DNA from: a virus
Lineage: Duplodnaviria; Caudoviricetes
IMG/VR virus record: IMGVR_UViG_3300044806_000184
Coordinates: 1 to 26,736 of that record
Length of the DNA: 26,736 nucleotides
Strand: one strand, 5' to 3'
Part shown: piece after piece, positions 4,440 through 15,051 of the stretch
Position numbering within the stretch: position 1 is the stretch's first letter
How the letters are laid out: each line of letters begins with the position of its first letter
Program-made: the position numbers and the translations under genes
Notes under the pieces: generated by a model
Databases searched by the model: none
What the model saw: only the letters and a program-made list of their open reading frames with translations
What the model was told of the DNA's origin: nothing

Positions 4440-5228
4440 ATGCCGACCCTAGTCTTTGACATTGAGGCAGATGGTTTCCTCTATGAAGTATCAACTATCT
4501 GGTGCTTGGTAGCTTATGAAGTTGAAACACAAACTTACCACATTTACCATGTTGACACAGAGGGGGGAGTATGCTACCCTAAAAAATATATACTACATAC
4601 TATAGATAGTATACTTTCTCTTCTTTCTACCTCTACTATAGTAGGTCATAATGTTTATAGTTATGATCTACCAGTATTAAGTAAATTATACAATTTTCAG
4701 TATACTCCTTCAGTTGAGCGATACCAGGATACCATTATCATGTCTAGGCTTTTCTACCCGGATAGGGATGGACATTCCCTGGAGGATTGGGGAGAGAGGC
4801 TAAAATACTCTAAGGGGGGTCATACAGACTTTTCCAGGTTTTCTAAAGAGATGCTCACCTATTGTATACGAGATGTAGATATCACCTATCGAACTTGGTT
4901 GCATCTTAAAGAAGAAGCTGGAGATTGGGATTGGAGTAGGTCACTTCTCCTTGAGTATAGTATGCAGCACATTCAAACTAAACAGGAAACCAATGGCGTA
5001 CTATTTGACAAAGATAAAGCTGAAACTCTTCTTGCTAAAATTCAACTTGAAATTGCTGACATTGAGGCTAAGGTTATTCCCGCCATTCCCCAAAAAGTAG
5101 TAGATATGGGGGAGGTGAGAAAGCCTTTCTTGAAGAGCGGAGAGTATAGTGAAATTACAAAGAGGTGGCTTAATGTACCAATGGCCGGATGTATCCCTTC
5201 CTCCGATCAATCTTTGGAACTTTCCTAG
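4440..5228 (+). CDS. polA: DNA polymerase A, N-terminal part: 3'-5' exonuclease plus first thumb helix
   Basis: ExoI FDIEADG, ExoII GHNVYSYD, ExoIII YCIRDV, then QETNGVLFD; GGAG SD; no polymerase motifs. Confidence 0.92.
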   Translation: MPTLVFDIEADGFLYEVSTIWCLVAYEVETQTYHIYHVDTEGGVCYPKKYILHTIDSILSLLSTSTIVGHNVYSYDLPVLSKLYNFQYTPSVERYQDTIIMSRLFYPDRDGHSLEDWGERLKYSKGGHTDFSRFSKEMLTYCIRDVDITYRTWLHLKEEAGDWDWSRSLLLEYSMQHIQTKQETNGVLFDKDKAETLLAKIQLEIADIEAKVIPAIPQKVVDMGEVRKPFLKSGEYSEITKRWLNVPMAGCIPSSDQSLELS

Positions 5229-5403
5229 AAAGGAAAAAGGTATGATGAGTATTATTCTTACTGACAGTAATGGAACTTACACGGTGAAACTCGATAGAGA
5301 GTTTGTTACTCTTGAGGAGTATATAGAGCTTCTCGTTAAGCCAGTACTTCTCGCAGCAGGTTTCCATCCAGACTCTATTAACCGATACATAGACAATGAC
5401 TAA
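5173..5403 (+). CDS. Small hypothetical protein between the polymerase halves (alternative start 5242)
   Basis: GAGG SD then ATG 5173 (MYQWPDVSLPPINLWNFP); second in-frame ATG 5242 behind AGGAAAAAGG; stop overlaps start of polymerase part 2. Confidence 0.7.
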   Translation: MYQWPDVSLPPINLWNFPRKEKGMMSIILTDSNGTYTVKLDREFVTLEEYIELLVKPVLLAAGFHPDSINRYIDND

Positions 5404-6529
5404 GCTTGTAGGTGGCCCATTCTGTAGGGTAGGCTTTGAGCCTATCAACCTTAATAGTAGTGGACAAGTTAAGGAGTATTTGCTCTCTCAAGGGTGGGTT
5501 CCTACTGAGTACAATTATCGTAAGGATAAGAAGGGCTATTTAGTTAAGGGTGAGGATGGTAACCCCATCCCAACAAGCCCCAAGCTTACAGAAGATAGCT
5601 TTGATAGTGTCAAAGGTGATATTCCTAAGTTGGTAGCACGAAGGAATATTCTTATTCACCGTCAACGTATGTTGAAGAATACGAGAAAGGATGGTGAGGA
5701 GAAAGGCTTATTGAATGCTATTAGGGATGATGGCAGGGTGGAAGCTAGATGTATTCCCCAAGCTACCAATACGGGTAGGGCCACTCACTCTATTGTGGTG
5801 AACATTCCTTCTATTCATGCAGTATACGGGGCTGAGATTAGGGATTTGTTCATCGTACCAGATGGATATGATATGGTGGGTGTAGATGCTGCTGCCCTTG
5901 AAGCCCGTATCTTTGCTCACTTTATGCTTAATTATCCTGGAGGTGATGAACTAGCTAATCTTGTTCTACATGGAGATATTCACCAAGAAAATGCGGATAT
6001 GTGGGGTTGCTCACGGAATGATGCTAAGTCTCCATACTATGCATTGATGTATGGAGCACAGATTCCTAAGTTCTCTGCTACACTAGGTGTAGATATAAGG
6101 ACAGGCAGCCAGCACTATAATGCCTTCTGGAATAAATACCGTGCTCTAGAGTTGTTTAAGCAGGATTTGGTGGAAGCTTGGCAAGCTAGGGGAGGTAAGA
6201 ATGGTGGCTTCATCCGTGGTATTGATGGTAGAAAACTCCATGCTCGTAGCCAACATTCTCTTGTCAACCTTATGTTTCAGAATGCTGGGAGTGTTGTTGT
6301 GAAGGTAGCAGCACTTTACATAAACAAGTGGATAGAAAGGGATAGCCTTGACGTAAAACAACTTATCTTCTATCATGATGAATTGGAATATCAAAGCTGG
6401 AAGGGTCATACTGAGCGGTTTCTTCCTCTTACCAGGCAAGCCTTCAAGAAGGCAGGAGAGTACTTTAAACTAAACGTGGAGATTGTTGGAGAACCTAAAG
6501 TAGGAAGGAGTTGGTATGATGTCCACTAA
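5396..6529 (+). CDS. polA: DNA polymerase A, C-terminal polymerase domain
   Basis: Motif A GVDAAALEAR, motif B RNDAKSPYYALMYG, motif C YHDE, TNTGR, C-terminal SWYDVH. Confidence 0.95.
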   Translation: MTKLVGGPFCRVGFEPINLNSSGQVKEYLLSQGWVPTEYNYRKDKKGYLVKGEDGNPIPTSPKLTEDSFDSVKGDIPKLVARRNILIHRQRMLKNTRKDGEEKGLLNAIRDDGRVEARCIPQATNTGRATHSIVVNIPSIHAVYGAEIRDLFIVPDGYDMVGVDAAALEARIFAHFMLNYPGGDELANLVLHGDIHQENADMWGCSRNDAKSPYYALMYGAQIPKFSATLGVDIRTGSQHYNAFWNKYRALELFKQDLVEAWQARGGKNGGFIRGIDGRKLHARSQHSLVNLMFQNAGSVVVKVAALYINKWIERDSLDVKQLIFYHDELEYQSWKGHTERFLPLTRQAFKKAGEYFKLNVEIVGEPKVGRSWYDVH

Positions 6530-6532
6530 CTC

Positions 6533-6560
6533 TTGACACACTTCGTTGTTGCTGTATAAT
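6533..6560 (+). promoter_or_regulatory. Sigma70-type promoter
   Basis: TTGACA (6533-6538), 16 nt spacer, TATAAT (6555-6560), intergenic. Confidence 0.9.
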
Positions 6561-6586: not shown

Positions 6587-6608
6587 CAACTACTAAGGAA
6601 CTAGACAA

Positions 6609-7232
6609 ATGGCACTGAACTTCTCTGAGACTAAAAAGCGTGTTGACTATGGCCGTGTTGAAGACGGCACCTATCCAGCACGGGTAGTACGCATTATCGA
6701 CTTCGGTTTGCAATATGCTACTGACTTCAAAACTGGTGAAGTCAAAAAGTATGATGATGGTAATGAGGTAATCCAACATAAGGTATGGATTGACTTTGAA
6801 CTTCCTACAGAGACTATCGACATTGATGGGGTTAAGAAGCCCCGTTGGTACGGGAAGGAATACACGGTTAGTAGTCATGAGAAGGCAGCTATTCAGGCCC
6901 TATTGAAGGCTGCTGATCCTGATGGGAAGGCTACTATGAAGGGTAAGAATGTAGTAGGACTTCTTGGACTTCCTGTGATGCTTACCATTGGCAGCACTTC
7001 TACAGGCAAGGCTAAGGTAGCTGGTATCACTCGCCTTATTAAGGGTATGAGTGTTGATCCCCTAGCCAATCCTACCCTCTTCTTTGACTTGGATGAGGCT
7101 ACCTATAAGGACTTTGAACTTCTCCCTGAGTGGATGCAGAAACGTATTAAAGATGGTGTAGATTTTGAATCCACTGGCTTGTATAAGAAGTTTAACAGTA
7201 TGTCAGATATTGAAGAGGATAGTCCTTACTAA
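6609..7232 (+). CDS. Probable single-stranded DNA-binding protein
   Basis: Follows the polymerase; GTYPARVVRIIDFG beta-rich N-terminus; acidic tail ending in an aromatic residue (DIEEDSPY) as in SSB tails; TAAGGA SD. Confidence 0.7.
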   Translation: MALNFSETKKRVDYGRVEDGTYPARVVRIIDFGLQYATDFKTGEVKKYDDGNEVIQHKVWIDFELPTETIDIDGVKKPRWYGKEYTVSSHEKAAIQALLKAADPDGKATMKGKNVVGLLGLPVMLTIGSTSTGKAKVAGITRLIKGMSVDPLANPTLFFDLDEATYKDFELLPEWMQKRIKDGVDFESTGLYKKFNSMSDIEEDSPY

Positions 7233-7241
7233 GTAGTTCCA

Positions 7242-7315
7242 GCCGGAGTAGCTCAATGATAGAGTTCTTCACTTGTAATGAAGGGATCACAGTTTGATTC
7301 TGTGCTCCGGCTCCA
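7242..7315 (+). tRNA. trnT: tRNA-Thr(UGU)
   Basis: Acceptor GCCGGAG/CTCCGGC, discriminator T, encoded CCA, anticodon arm CTTCA-CTTGTAA-TGAAG, T-arm CACAG-TTTGATT-CTGTG. Confidence 0.92.
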
Positions 7316-7320
7316 AATAT

Positions 7321-7397
7321 GGCCCTGTACCTTAATTGCATAGAGGAATGCTCTTCTAAAGCATCTTGTGGGAGTTGGACTCTCCCCAGGGCCGCCA
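7321..7397 (+). tRNA. trnR: tRNA-Arg(UCU)
   Basis: Acceptor GGCCCTG/CAGGGCC, discriminator G, CCA, anticodon arm ATGCT-CTTCTAA-AGCAT, T-arm GGGAG-TTGGACT-CTCCC. Confidence 0.9.
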
Positions 7398-7402
7398 TAT
7401 AA

Positions 7403-7487
7403 CCCGGAGTGGTGAAATCGCTAAACACATCAGTCTTAAACATTGACGCCTTTGGGCTTGCGGGTTGGATTCCCGCCTCCGGGACCA
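7403..7487 (+). tRNA. trnL: tRNA-Leu(UAA)
   Basis: Acceptor CCCGGAG/CTCCGGG, discriminator A, CCA, anticodon arm TCAGT-CTTAAAC-ATTGA, long variable arm, T-arm GCGGG-TTGGATT-CCCGC. Confidence 0.92.
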
Positions 7488-7501
7488 TTTAAGGAAACAC
7501 T

Positions 7502-7693
7502 ATGACTAGAGATGAAGCGTATAAAGTAATTGATGAAAGTCTCGGTGGGTATTTGTGTGAGGATTGTCCTTACTATATTGTGGGTGTTGATCCTCCTGAG
7601 TATGGAGATGTGTTCCCTAAACAATGGAAAGATTGTTGTGTAGATAATCCTTTTCATTGTCCTTATGTAGATATGGAGGTAAATAGTGGCTAA
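7502..7693 (+). CDS. Hypothetical Cys-rich protein
   Basis: TAAGGA SD; CEDC...CC...HCP. Confidence 0.7.
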   Translation: MTRDEAYKVIDESLGGYLCEDCPYYIVGVDPPEYGDVFPKQWKDCCVDNPFHCPYVDMEVNSG

Positions 7694-7880
7694 GGTTACG
7701 GTGTTTCTTGATTGCCCTTCTATAGCTCATTACTACTCTGGAGATGAAGATATCCCTGGTGTATTTGTAGGAACTTTTGAGGAAGGTCGTCAAAAGATTA
7801 TTGACAAACTCCATGCTTACATTAAGCAGTTGGAGTCTGTTACCTATAGCGATTGGAAAAAGAATCATGGTGTGCTATGA
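7686..7880 (+). CDS. Hypothetical protein
   Basis: GGAGGT SD, GTG start overlapping upstream gene. Confidence 0.65.
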   Translation: MAKVTVFLDCPSIAHYYSGDEDIPGVFVGTFEEGRQKIIDKLHAYIKQLESVTYSDWKKNHGVL

Positions 7881-8194
7881 TTAATTATGATTTGGCTAGG
7901 AGGAGGGGTCTCTCTCCTGAAACTATTGTGGAGATTGAGAAACTTCAAGAATATAGGGAGCTTCTAGGAAAGCTCTATCTTGATGGGGGCATCTCTGCGG
8001 CACATTACCGAGAGGCTTGGACAATTAATGAATTTAATCTACAGGCTCTCTGGCAATTTCCATTGGATGCTAACTATCATATGTTCTGGAGAATGGCAGG
8101 ATGTACTTGTCCTAAGATGGATAATGAAGATGCTTGGGGTATTGGATGCAACGTATACTCTTCCACTTGCCCTATACATGGAGGTTTCGTATGA
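7877..8194 (+). CDS. Hypothetical protein with CTCP...CPIHG putative Zn site
   Basis: ATGA overlap at 7877; CTCPKMDN...CPIHG motif. Confidence 0.75.
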   Translation: MINYDLARRRGLSPETIVEIEKLQEYRELLGKLYLDGGISAAHYREAWTINEFNLQALWQFPLDANYHMFWRMAGCTCPKMDNEDAWGIGCNVYSSTCPIHGGFV

Positions 8195-8385
8195 CAGATA
8201 TCTACACTCCTCGTCTTCATGGCAAGACTATCTATGAATGGACTCAGCTAGGGCTCTTCACTATGAAGGATATTAAAGCTTATGCTGAGAAAGAGAAGGC
8301 TCAACTTGAGTTGCCTTTTGATGAGGATCGAATTGACATTATAGGAGCCAATGGGAATACGGGGGATCATTATGGAAAAGTATGA
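8191..8385 (+). CDS. Hypothetical protein
   Basis: GGAGGT SD, ATGA overlap; EDRIDIIGANGNTGDHY motif of a kind recurrent in phage small proteins. Confidence 0.7.
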   Translation: MTDIYTPRLHGKTIYEWTQLGLFTMKDIKAYAEKEKAQLELPFDEDRIDIIGANGNTGDHYGKV

Positions 8386-8536
8386 ACAACCTGGAGAACG
8401 TCTTCATAGTAAAGTACCTACAGACAAGTATAAAGAAGCATATGATCGTATCTTTGGTAAAAAACAGTATTGGTACGAAAAGAAATTAGAGAAAGAAAAT
8501 AATGAACATCCTACGGAAACTCAAGAAGACAAATGA
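8372..8536 (+). CDS. Hypothetical protein
   Basis: GGGGGA SD; SKVPTDKYKEAYDRIFGKK motif. Confidence 0.65.
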   Translation: MEKYEQPGERLHSKVPTDKYKEAYDRIFGKKQYWYEKKLEKENNEHPTETQEDK

Positions 8537-8654
8537 AGAAATCTATGAAGGAAACATTCGATCTGACTTCTCTACAACTCGAACAGTAGTTGTAGCTACT
8601 ATCATTGAAGGTTGCTTTTGTATCCTTTGGTCTTCCTTTTGGAATAAGAGATGA
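8502..8654 (+). CDS. Hypothetical 50-aa protein (not in ORF track)
   Basis: Manual translation MNILRKLKKTNEE...ILWSSFWNKR; fills the gap and its TGA overlaps the exonuclease ATG. Confidence 0.5.
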   Translation: MNILRKLKKTNEEIYEGNIRSDFSTTRTVVVATIIEGCFCILWSSFWNKR

Positions 8655-9364
8655 AACGTCAGAGACTCCAGTACAAACCGATTGATGGCACTCTTGCCCT
8701 CTTGGATGGGGACATAATCTGCTACCGCATAGGATTCACTACACAAGATGTTAATGAGAAAATTACTCTCTCTCGTATTAATTCCTATCTGGATAATATT
8801 CTATTTGATAGTGGTGCTAGTGATTATGTTATCTATCTTACTGGAAACAATAATTACAGAAAAGTAATTTATCCTGAATACAAAGCCAATCGTACTCAAG
8901 AGAAACCTAAACATTATGAACTGATTCGTGAATACCTCATGAATCATGAAGCTGCTGTAATGTGTGAGGAGGAAGAGGCTGATGATGTTATTGGGTATTC
9001 CCAAACAGAGAGTACTATCATCTGCACGATAGATAAGGACCTCGACCAGATTCCTGGAAGACACTTTAACTTCGTAAAGAATAAGCATTATGAAGTGACA
9101 GAAGATGAAGGTCTTGCTTTCTTCTATTCTCAATTGTTGACAGGGGATAGGGTCGATAATATCCCTGGTCTTCCTAAAGTTGGCCCTGTCAAGGCTAAGA
9201 AAATCCTAGGAGAGTGGACTGATGAACAAGATGCTAAAACAAAAACTCTTGAAGCCTACAAAGAACTCCTGGGAATGGATGAAGAAAAAGCAAGAGAAAG
9301 AATTAACCTTATTGGGAAACTCCTGTGGATTAGGAAAAAAGAAAATGAGCTTTGGGAATTTTAA
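8651..9364 (+). CDS. 5'-3' exonuclease (T7 gp6 / flap endonuclease family)
   Basis: LLDGDIICY, YKANR, EADD, DKDLDQIPG, LTGDRVDNIPGL motifs. Confidence 0.93.
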   Translation: MKRQRLQYKPIDGTLALLDGDIICYRIGFTTQDVNEKITLSRINSYLDNILFDSGASDYVIYLTGNNNYRKVIYPEYKANRTQEKPKHYELIREYLMNHEAAVMCEEEEADDVIGYSQTESTIICTIDKDLDQIPGRHFNFVKNKHYEVTEDEGLAFFYSQLLTGDRVDNIPGLPKVGPVKAKKILGEWTDEQDAKTKTLEAYKELLGMDEEKARERINLIGKLLWIRKKENELWEF

Positions 9365-9721
9365 ATGATCTGGACCGACGCAAGGAAACGAGGCTTTATC
9401 ATCTCTCTTCTCCGTAAGGGTTTCTCTCGTTTCCCTGCTAAATATGAAGCACTGAAGAAAGCTTTTGTAGGGAGGAAACCTAATAAAGCTACAGGCAGAT
9501 TAGCTGCTCATTACAAATGTGCTAAATGTAAAAAGGAGTTTGTCAAGGTAGATGTTGAAGTAGATCATATAATTACAGTCGTAGATGTTGAGAAAGGGTT
9601 TACAAGTTTTGAAGAGTATGTTGACAGACTCTTCTGTTCTCCTGACAATCTCCAAATTTTATGTAAGCCCTGCCATCGAAAGAAAACTCTTGCTGAAATG
9701 AAGAAAAGGAAGAAGAAATGA
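9365..9721 (+). CDS. HNH endonuclease
   Basis: CAKC...VEVDHI...NLQILCKPCH. Confidence 0.85.
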   Translation: MIWTDARKRGFIISLLRKGFSRFPAKYEALKKAFVGRKPNKATGRLAAHYKCAKCKKEFVKVDVEVDHIITVVDVEKGFTSFEEYVDRLFCSPDNLQILCKPCHRKKTLAEMKKRKKK

Positions 9722-9972
9722 AATTTAAGAAAGAAGACCTTCTTAATGATGTTTTTGAAGAAGTCTATGAGAAAGTTACAGATACTTCTCGTTGGTCCAC
9801 GAATTATGAAAAAGTTTTTAAGTACGAGGATAAATTCTATATTACTTGGTTTAGTAGGGGGGCTACTGAGTATCAAGATGAATCTCCCTATGAGGATGAA
9901 GGAGATGAAATTGAATGTCCTGAAGTAATCCCCACTGAAGAAACTATCATTGTGTATAAGGTGAAAAAATGA
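9718..9972 (+). CDS. Hypothetical acidic protein
   Basis: ATGA overlap; DTSRWS...GATEYQDESP. Confidence 0.75.
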   Translation: MKFKKEDLLNDVFEEVYEKVTDTSRWSTNYEKVFKYEDKFYITWFSRGATEYQDESPYEDEGDEIECPEVIPTEETIIVYKVKK

Positions 9973-10972: not shown

Positions 10973-11282
10973 ATATAAAGGCAGAGAGGATTGGTATGCT
11001 GCATATTATAAGAGAAATAAAGAAAAATACCAACACAATCAGAGAAAGAGACTCTACGGGTTACAACCAGAGCAATTAGAATTTCTCCTTATTTCGCAAA
11101 ATAACTCTTGTGCAATTTGCAAAGCACCTTTTTCTGAAACACCCCATGTAGATCATTGTCATATAACTAAGGGAGTTAGGGGTTTGCTCTGTCGCAGATG
11201 TAACACTGGTTTGGGTTATTATGAGAAGTATGCAGAACAATTTAAAGAATATCTAGAGGGCTCCACAAATGAATTTTTGTAA
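10965..11282 (+). CDS. Endonuclease VII family protein
   Basis: CAIC...HVDHCH...VRGLLCRRCNTGLG. Confidence 0.9.
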   Translation: MNKYKGREDWYAAYYKRNKEKYQHNQRKRLYGLQPEQLEFLLISQNNSCAICKAPFSETPHVDHCHITKGVRGLLCRRCNTGLGYYEKYAEQFKEYLEGSTNEFL

Positions 11283-11643
11283 TAGACTTGCTAATGTTTC
11301 TAACAGGTTTCAAGGAGATACTAAGAAAGTACTCTGTGTCTGTAGTGCTGGACTTCTCCGTAGCCCTACAATGGCTGTAGTACTCTCTCAAGAACCTTAC
11401 AACTATAATACTCGGGCAGCAGGCTTGAGTAAAGAATATGCTCTTATTCTTGTAGATGACGTGCTTTTACATTGGGCAGATGAATTTGTCTGTGCTGAGT
11501 CTTGGATGTCTCAGGAGATTGAAGAGATGCTAAAGGCTTTAGGTATGGAACATAAAGATATTATTGCTTTGGATATTCCTGATAAATATGAATATAGGAA
11601 CCCAGAACTCATGCAGCTAATTAGGGAGAAGTATGATGGGTGA
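11269..11643 (+). CDS. Low-molecular-weight protein tyrosine phosphatase-fold protein
   Basis: KVLCVCSAGLLRSPT (CX5RS P-loop), WAD, LDIPDKY acid loop. Confidence 0.85.
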   Translation: MNFCNRLANVSNRFQGDTKKVLCVCSAGLLRSPTMAVVLSQEPYNYNTRAAGLSKEYALILVDDVLLHWADEFVCAESWMSQEIEEMLKALGMEHKDIIALDIPDKYEYRNPELMQLIREKYDG

Positions 11644-14321: not shown

Positions 14322-14425
14322 GATGTATCAAGCAATGTAAGCTCTCTCCCTGTAAAACATATTGCCTTGGTTGTAAACGAACTATGGAAGAGATTAGAGA
14401 TGCGGGTAGCAATCGTAGGAAGTAG
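14318..14425 (+). CDS. DUF1289-like small Cys-rich protein (35 aa, not in ORF track)
   Basis: Manual translation MRCIKQCKLSPCKTYCLGCKRTMEEIRDAGSNRRK; CxxxC...CxGCxRTxxEI signature; ATGA overlap with nrdJ stop. Confidence 0.75.
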   Translation: MRCIKQCKLSPCKTYCLGCKRTMEEIRDAGSNRRK

Positions 14426-14768
14426 ACACATAGATGATAGTCATTATGTTTTTCCTCATATTGCTCGGTTTATTAAGGAGCATACTTTTGGAAATGTTAC
14501 AATTGTTTCAGGTGGTGCGAAGGGAGTAGATAGTTTAGCTAAGGAATATGCTAAACAAAATGGGCTAGACTTTATTGAGTTTCAACCCTATCATGTACTA
14601 GATAAGCTTACACCTTTTGAGAAGAAATACTTCTTCATTAGGAATAGGCAAATCATTGACAACTGTGATAAGGTCTTAGCTTTTTGGGATGGGGTAAGTA
14701 GTGGAACTGAGCACGCTATTAAGTATGCTCAGAAACACAATAAACCAGTGATGATTATTAAATCTTAA
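14400..14768 (+). CDS. SLOG superfamily protein (YspA/DUF2493-like)
   Basis: VAIVGSR, IVSGGAKGVDSLA, RNRQII, AFWDGVSSGT; ATG 14400 preferred over 14367. Confidence 0.88.
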   Translation: MRVAIVGSRHIDDSHYVFPHIARFIKEHTFGNVTIVSGGAKGVDSLAKEYAKQNGLDFIEFQPYHVLDKLTPFEKKYFFIRNRQIIDNCDKVLAFWDGVSSGTEHAIKYAQKHNKPVMIIKS

Positions 14769-15047
14769 GGAGTTTTATATGAATTTTGGACAAGCATTAG
14801 AAGCAATGAAATCTGGTAAGAAAGTTTGTAGAGGGGGTTGGAATGGGAAGAGTAGGAAGCGTATGTTTCTTTTTCTAGTTCCTGGTAGTCACTTTGTTGT
14901 AAATCGTCCTCCTCTTTTAGGTATCTATCCTCCTGGTACAGAAGTGCCCTATCACGCGCATATAGATATGAGGACCGCTCAAGGGGATATAGTTCCTTGG
15001 CTTTGCTCTCAAACAGATATGTTAGCTGAGGATTGGATGATTATTAA
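14750..15047 (+). repeat. 12-bp direct repeat GATGATTATTAA (14750-14761 and 15036-15047)
   Basis: Exact match at the 3' ends of the SLOG gene and tad2; both copies encode MIIK. Confidence 0.85.
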
Positions 15048-15051
15048 GTAA
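14779..15051 (+). CDS. tad2: DUF2829 / Thoeris anti-defence 2 (Tad2)-like sponge protein
   Basis: MNFGQALEAMKSGKKVCRGGWNGK...WLCSQTDMLAEDW signature; TAAGGAG SD. Confidence 0.85.
   Translation: MNFGQALEAMKSGKKVCRGGWNGKSRKRMFLFLVPGSHFVVNRPPLLGIYPPGTEVPYHAHIDMRTAQGDIVPWLCSQTDMLAEDWMIIK

Follow-up and report, generated by a model that had tools for sequence, protein, structure and literature searches.

The window (the whole 26,736-nucleotide stretch of viral DNA analysed here) contains exactly three tRNA genes according to ARAGORN. They form a cassette bounded by two ORFs:

6533..6560, + strand: sigma-70 consensus promoter, perfect 12/12 match, 16-nt spacer
6609..7232, + strand: 207-aa ORF, left anchor of the cassette; phrog_862 (unknown function), 97 homologs
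7242..7315, + strand: tRNA-Thr(UGU), pair A19 (7259) - U56 (7295), by ARAGORN and RF00005 alignment
7321..7397, + strand: tRNA-Arg(UCU), pair C19 (7339) - G56 (7377); A20 and G73 kept
7403..7487, + strand: tRNA-Leu(UAA), long variable arm, pair C19 (7421) - G56 (7467); A73 kept
7502..7693, + strand: 63-aa ORF, right anchor of the cassette; sister phages with canonical tRNAs have it too

Five promoter-like sites were found in the region, which is not above the 4.6 found in shuffled sequences; only the perfect match stands out, and it likely drives the upstream gene together with the tRNAs. The 207-aa ORF gave no match in a Pfam search; since it follows polA and has an acidic tail, it probably encodes a single-stranded-DNA-binding protein. 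The 63-aa ORF had no match in PHROGs or Pfam. Other phage genes in the window include a T7-like primase-helicase, a split family A DNA polymerase and ribonucleotide reductase, with virion genes on the other strand, and the phage is read as a podovirus. The DNA polymerase (4440-6529) is divided into an exonuclease ORF (4440-5228) and a polymerase ORF (5396-6529); in sister phages the polymerase part is 72-75% identical as opposed to 99% for the exonuclease part, and the spacer between the two differs. No cultured relative above 60% identity was found for polA or the primase-helicase. The best endolysin matches, to Aeromonas, Pseudomonas and Vibrio phages, point weakly to a gammaproteobacterial host; the single Pseudomonas-phage match is a weak hint of host. 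A Tad2-like (Thoeris anti-defence 2) protein is encoded at 14779-15051 on the + strand (PF11195, 85 bits), adjoining a SLOG-family ORF at 14367-14768. A 124-aa ORF at 11269-11643 has no PHROG or Pfam match and carries a CSAGLLRS motif, which we take to recall low-molecular-weight phosphatases; this ORF and the preceding endonuclease VII gene find no match in one of the sister phages (L083).

The G19-C56 pair is taught as an invariant feature of tRNA and makes the corner of the L shape. Its base identity is absent from all three window tRNAs, which have A-U, C-G and C-G instead, and a Watson-Crick partner is present at 19-56 in each. Scores against Rfam RF00005 were 62 (Thr), 53.9 (Arg) and 50.2 bits (Leu) versus a gathering score of 29, and the RF00005 alignment put the changed bases in the G19 and C56 columns in every case, the coordinates of position 19 being counted along the sequence. 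ARAGORN, the alignment and the positions thus agree on the three pairs reported in the earlier note, and the bases sit at 19 and 56 rather than elsewhere in the molecule. Misnumbering or assembly error is ruled out by the alignment, by an identical cassette in a second strain (L004) and by four DNA runs. When set beside the canonical RF00005 elongator tRNA (with its G18-psi55, G19-C56 and T54-A58 elbow), the three genes have the same cloverleaf and lengths and, at the sequence level, keep U8-A14, A15-U48, G18-U55, U54-A58, G53-C61 and the encoded CCA end, the last as previously claimed; the canonical molecule has G19-C56 where all three have A-U or C-G. A pattern consisting of a T-loop without C56 followed by a CCA end matched exactly these three sites in the window; the expectation from shuffled sequences is 0.15. 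If each tRNA is swapped at the rate sampled for viruses (1/165 pattern tRNAs, 1/141 neighbours), the chance of three swapped tRNAs out of three is about 2e-7; it is 3e-5 at 3% per tRNA, and about 0.014 at the 24% rate seen beside an already swapped tRNA; the three-tRNA swap is beyond chance. In the Leu(UAA) anticodon arm (7434-7440), C38 in the loop and a G30-U40 wobble in the stem could be separate escape changes. Contigs from two of four RNA libraries (X15 and X16, not X18 or X19) cover the tRNA sequence; DNA may be present in these libraries, and mature tRNA is not distinguishable in them.

Frequencies of 19:56 swaps were obtained with scans that use one common D-arm pattern, and the rates are valid for that tRNA subset; the stored viral stretches of this type were estimated at about 66,000 in all, about 2,000 of them without C56. 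With position 56 left free (171 matches, two without an ARAGORN call), 163 of 165 distinct viral tRNAs had G-C, one had A-U and one C-C. Distinct viral tRNAs selected for lacking C56 numbered 119 and comprised 76 A-U, 16 U-A, 11 C-G, 11 G-U and 5 other combinations. Watson-Crick compensation was found in 103 of them, 60 of which are tRNA-Arg. A corresponding scan of GTDB genomes yielded 105 tRNAs without C56, mostly Arg and Gly, of which 100 were compensated and 81 had A-U. These counts uphold the earlier claim that selection keeps the pair, as do mutants of Aquifex tRNA-Leu, in which G19C is not measurably charged and the double change G19U:C56A restores 0.54 of wild-type charging efficiency (PMC2377443). 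The swap is rare, almost always compensated, and found outside phages as well. By title, 80 of the 122 GTDB loci break down into 51 Bacteroidota, 9 CPR, 5 Alphaproteobacteria, 4 DPANN, 4 Firmicutes, 2 Planctomycetota and 5 other; none of these 80 is from Gamma- or Betaproteobacteria. Across the GTDB loci (L285-L406), the chromosomal tRNA-Arg(ACG) of Bacteroidota is often A19-U56 and sometimes U19-A56, Gly(UCC) is A-U, and Gly(GCC) of Saccharibacteria is U-A. No description of these Bacteroidota and CPR swaps was found in the literature searched.

Among cultured phages, T5 offers the same A19-U56 pair in tRNA-Ile1(GAU) (T5t02, NC_005859 28210-28286). There, the swap affects one of 25 ARAGORN calls in the T5 region, with no C19-G56, compared with three of three in the window, and the literature examined reports no role in defence escape. 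Cellular relatives of the state, namely Arg(ACG) and Gly(UCC) of Bacteroidota and Ala and Gly of CPR, show the same kind of compensated pair (A19-U56, U19-A56 or C19-G56); unlike the window genes, they are lineage-wide, mostly A-U, confined to few isotypes and not part of an exchangeable cassette. A phage-specific swap is ruled out by the GTDB occurrences, and G19-C56 is better regarded as near-invariant than as strictly defining for an elongator tRNA, being missing also from T5 tRNA-Ile and from Bacteroidota tRNA-Arg. The earlier note had reckoned with the possibility that such swaps are common neutral variation in phage tRNAs. This turned out to apply in part only: swaps recur in phages, at a rate of about 1-3% for viral tRNAs of the type sampled, and the chromosomal tRNA-Arg of Bacteroidota commonly has them.

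The cassette itself was compared with the corresponding slot in sister phages and in populations. The strain L004 is distinct from the window phage (92% identity over 6595-9724, 75% in polA) and carries an identical cassette, and contigs of four out of four DNA runs, from four independent studies of which none is flagged as a potential origin of the window DNA, show no differing letter in 7242-7487, with SNPs in the flanks; the 246 nt are thus free of variants across L004 and the four studies. Other sisters hold other tRNAs at the same place. In L001 and L003, whose upstream protein is 100% identical to that of the window, the slot holds a 91-nt element followed by a different Thr and a different Arg, both canonical. 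L002 and L005 (75% identity) have Thr, Arg and Leu, all canonical, and L006 and L085 (67%) have a single canonical Arg. The more distant L096 (35%) carries an Arg with A19-U56 and a Gly with C19-G56, two of its three tRNAs. Window positions 7463-8654 are 89.6% identical to L083. In the DNA runs the alternative cassettes diverge at 7232-7234, where loose ends reveal at least three other inserts. In run X13, where the upstream gene is covered at depth 160, the window cassette reaches 30-39 and is in the minority. A different insert there terminates in a tRNA-like arm bearing U56, and in one record a canonical L001-type Thr is fused to the first part of the swapped Arg, up to about 7348 as inferred from depth bins. 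The tRNA slot is exchangeable, and co-occurring strains hold different tRNA sets. The 91-nt element (L001 6633-6723, also in L003 and L083) replaces the first tRNA and has an 8-bp closing stem and an acceptor-like ACC end; its start appears among the loose ends of X13. ARAGORN does not call it, it matches no Rfam family in its own right, and its folding is not better than that of shuffled sequences (z -1.5); it may be a tRNA-like RNA, or else a tRNA that has decayed. With the exonuclease as a second marker, 23 loci were recovered, none of which, by coordinates, is a new close strain spanning the slot. A blastn search of cultured phages with the cassette returned only weak matches of tRNA-Leu type, none reaching 80% query coverage.

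The swaps are derived, given that the outgroups have canonical tRNAs. The Thr of the window is 91% identical to the Thr of L002/L005, which has G19-C56. The two differ only at 19, 56, 57, 59 and two variable-loop sites and at no stem base; both members of the pair have changed and the stems have not, in a DNA context that is about 72% identical. These two tRNAs are a natural test pair. The window Arg is unrelated to the canonical Arg of L001, L002 and L006 and, its identical L004 copy aside, reaches a best score of 0.69 among 427 Arg tRNAs compared. The window Leu has the D-arm and variable arm in common with the canonical Leu of L002, from which its acceptor stem and its anticodon stem differ.

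Swapped tRNAs are clustered in phage genomes. A scan for tandem CCA-ending tRNAs, the first with U56 and the second without C56, gave 118 stretches with 59 distinct pairs, 45 of them doubly swapped (29 matches without two ARAGORN calls were dropped). Of 58 distinct pairs headed by a C19-G56 tRNA, 14 had a swap in the following tRNA too, compared with a baseline of 2/306 (Fisher p 1.5e-10, kinship uncorrected; 46 matches without two ARAGORN calls were dropped). Full flanks were examined for 80 loci per scan: 104 of 1497 unselected neighbours in swap-bearing loci were swapped, against 1/141; a first, smaller neighbour sample (11/252 against 1/141, p 0.06) had not reached significance. Related phages inflate these counts because only identical sequences were removed. 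The most swapped of the well-sampled isotypes among neighbours are Arg (27/125) and Thr (16/104), and single phage arrays reach 9/24 and 8/19 swapped tRNAs. Eight loci (L573, L604, L605, L618, L680, L696, L712 and L729) have a similar gene order with swaps in different isoacceptors. The tRNAs of L780 (C-G) and L601 (A-U) are 95% identical and represent two non-canonical states, and the Arg of L273 differs from a canonical Arg by C56U and nothing else. Swap-bearing loci also have changes at 54, 55 or 58, but such a change and a 19:56 swap rarely fall in one tRNA (4/104 versus 223/1393, p 3e-4). A second elbow covariation was seen in L567, L649, L619 and others, in which A18 and G55 take the place of G18-U55 and G19-C56 is kept; L567 has G55 in nine of 20 tRNAs. 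In 36 of 38 cases, unselected T-loops with UGC go with A18 instead of G18 (AG in the D-loop). D-loops with A18-G19, labelled AC/CC/TC by rule, are mostly 18:55 changes and were left out of the 19:56 swap counts.

Published work provides several points of comparison. The elbow presents the flat 19-56 face to many partners, among them ribosomal protein L5, which contacts G19-C56 in the P site (PMC4810234). Phage tRNAs including Thr(UGU) stand in for host tRNAs cut by OLD, whose main target is Thr(UGU) and which also affects Arg (PMC12445682; 10.64898/2026.07.10.737580); the CdiA-CT E479 toxin, a PD-(D/E)XK tRNase, cuts tRNA2-Arg in the T-loop (PMC9086364). The window Thr(UGU) and Arg are thus isoacceptors of known tRNase targets. 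The cassette most likely works, by analogy, like the nuclease-resistant phage tRNAs described for OLD, PARIS, retron and Septu systems, in which altered tRNAs likewise replace cut host tRNAs (PMC12445682, 10.64898/2026.07.10.737580, PMC10264068, PMC11464382, PMC13096335). In those systems, however, the reported escape changes and cut sites map to the anticodon arm or the variable loop rather than to the elbow. OLD reads the anticodon stem (PMC12445682); its CNG motif was considered as a driver and rejected, because the anticodon stem is shared by the swapped Thr and the canonical ortholog and lacks CNG in both, so that the swap is not accounted for by the determinant known for OLD. A bacterial Schlafen makes its cut in the anticodon arm (PMC13056530), and Cas12a3 acts on the CCA tail, its T-arm contact being with the backbone only (PMC12851939). 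No anti-phage tRNase that reads G19 or C56 was found in the open literature, where OLD, Schlafen and Cas12a3 act elsewhere on the molecule. CdiA-CT E479 sets a precedent as a T-loop attacker; it is an inter-bacterial toxin rather than a known anti-phage effector, and the excerpt of PMC9086364 does not state a dependence on G19 or C56. An eLife paper on phage tRNA escape never mentions the D-loop, T-loop, T-arm or elbow in the text examined (PMC10264068). For eukaryotic tRNA-Ala, unusual pairs at 15-48 and 54-58 have been described (PMC7566577), and conserved tRNA positions are listed in PMC10424219. No paper on natural 19:56 recoding in phage tRNAs was found in the main texts of the open literature, although supplementary tRNA tables may already contain such pairs: the exact-term match was a tmRNA paper (PMC10944890) and the match for "phage tRNA" with "elbow" a VapBC paper.

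The explanation that we favour, tentatively, is that the cassette supplies functional replacement tRNAs in which 19:56 is recoded to evade a host reader of the T-loop or elbow. Its starting points are the change on both sides of 19:56 with the other checked tertiary contacts kept, the different tRNA sets with which co-occurring strains fill the slot, and the established replacement, in other phages, of nuclease-cut host tRNAs by phage Thr(UGU) and other phage tRNAs. Published mutants and T5 suggest that the swapped tRNAs would be chargeable and usable, since the ribosome, RNase P and synthetases mostly read a flat paired surface. The host effector would have to contact the bases G19/C56 specifically, or else a T-loop modification dependent on them, and swapped tRNAs would escape it; recoding would remove the G19-C56/T-psi-C signature while retaining the elbow of the L. 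Three unrelated tRNAs all swapped through two different pairs, and the Tad2-like anti-defence protein also encoded in the window, speak for such an escape. So do the Thr pair, the invariance of the cassette beside varying flanks, the alternative inserts, the clustering of swaps, the moves between non-canonical states, the T-loop cutting by CdiA-CT E479 and the rescue from OLD by phage Thr(UGU) tRNAs. Against it, the sisters L001/L003, L002/L005 and L006 persist with canonical tRNAs, and the window cassette is in the minority in X13; moreover, the frequency of the swap in chromosomal tRNAs (100/105 of those without C56 compensated; Bacteroidota 51 of the 80 loci listed) implies that it can be a stable housekeeping state, and structural epistasis alone is also expected to produce one change per elbow. 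The earlier proposal that selection acts to change elbow identity, as distinct from keeping the pair, has no more than indirect support, from the clustering within phage lineages, the elbow-focused change in Thr and the exchangeable slot.

A rather less likely, though possible, account is compensatory drift that is merely tolerated: only pairing would matter, constraint on phage tRNAs would be weaker, and swaps would arise through G-U intermediates and spread by recombination with no benefit. In line with this, A-U, two transitions away from G-C, is the commonest swap among viral (76/119) and cellular (81/105) tRNAs alike, G-U intermediates exist (11/119, with the lone C56U of L273 as an example), and the swap is widespread in Bacteroidota chromosomes. 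Yet a change from G-C to C-G needs two transversions and has occurred in two of the three window pairs, the Thr pair is altered at the elbow with its stems unchanged, and unpaired states are scarce (5/119). The viral baseline of 163/165 G-C indicates that phage tRNAs are not generally relaxed. Drift can further appeal to the 0.54 of wild-type charging efficiency that the G19U:C56A molecule keeps (PMC2377443). We consider it unlikely that the swap tunes T-loop modification, stability or ribosome transit for phage translation with no defence enzyme involved. TruB accepts 53-GUUYRANYC-61 (PMC7912444), a motif that admits U56 and not G56, so that Arg and Leu are predicted to lack psi55; this would fit such tuning, as would the L5 contact in the P site (PMC4810234). 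But two kinds of pair occur among the three tRNAs, and the modification outcomes predicted for them differ; the codons that the tRNAs decode are not uniformly favoured (ACA 19-30% of Thr, AGA 19-50% of Arg, UUA only 7-10% of Leu). For the same UUA share, codon compensation as the reason for the cassette is unsupported in the case of Leu.

The remaining possibilities appear remote. The earlier note had also suggested that a phage enzyme attacks canonical host tRNAs at the elbow and that the phage's own tRNAs are spared. The swap in three of three tRNAs would suit this idea, and the contig is partial (26.7 kb; a 42-kb contig encodes the same upstream protein) with many small ORFs without a family. 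It is nonetheless disfavoured, and we find it very improbable, because canonical Thr and Arg are found in a sister whose upstream protein is 100% identical and whose downstream ORFs are the same; in addition, the X13 record links a canonical Thr to the swapped Arg (extent inferred from depth). No tRNase, RNA ligase or tRNA-modifying family was recognised among 39 ORFs (PHROGs) or 28 (Pfam) of the 26.7-kb contig, which shows no tRNase gene co-varying with the swapped tRNAs; the adjacent ORFs are common to canonical sisters. It is about as improbable that the genes are decoys or decaying and their RNAs not used in translation. The minimum-free-energy folds of Arg and Leu do miss the D-arm, a common outcome for unmodified tRNA. 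However, all checked tertiary contacts are kept, as are what we take to be the identity elements (Arg A20, Leu A73, Thr G1-C72/C2-G71), the cassette sequence is invariant across strains, and the A19-U56 tRNA-Ile1 of T5 becomes an amber suppressor upon a change of anticodon, according to a RefSeq note (NC_005859). Least probable of all is that the phage acquired its tRNAs, swapped beforehand, from a host lineage (Bacteroidota or CPR bacteria, for instance): common as swapped chromosomal tRNAs are in those groups, the window Thr goes back to a canonical phage ortholog in the same slot, none of the cellular tRNAs compared comes closer than 0.69 (in a small sample), the endolysin matches lead to phages of Aeromonas, Pseudomonas and Vibrio, and Gamma- and Betaproteobacteria are absent from the 80 GTDB loci classified by title.

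Returning to escape from an elbow reader, it is conceivable, if doubtful, that an undescribed and widespread class of bacterial anti-phage effectors reads the T-psi-C/elbow face of tRNA. Phages might answer such effectors with one recoded contact per tRNA (19:56, 18:55 or 54:58), traded via cassettes, and the chromosomes of Bacteroidota and CPR may carry scars of the same effectors.

Judged by their sequences, the window tRNAs are ordinary tRNAs with one recoded tertiary pair, and the recoding is real, compensated and recurrent. What is new here is the swap in three of three tRNAs of a small phage, the canonical ortholog with identical stems, and the exchange of genes in one slot among co-occurring strains. 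Because that ortholog is identical in its stems and anticodon arm, the question of why phages carry tRNAs can be tested outside the anticodon arm. If drift is the answer, the ribosome and RNase P would need only a flat pair, and one may ask why, then, most cells have G-C. If escape is the answer, swapped tRNAs would be bait for new tRNA-targeting immune effectors and would provide a design rule for nuclease-resistant tRNAs.
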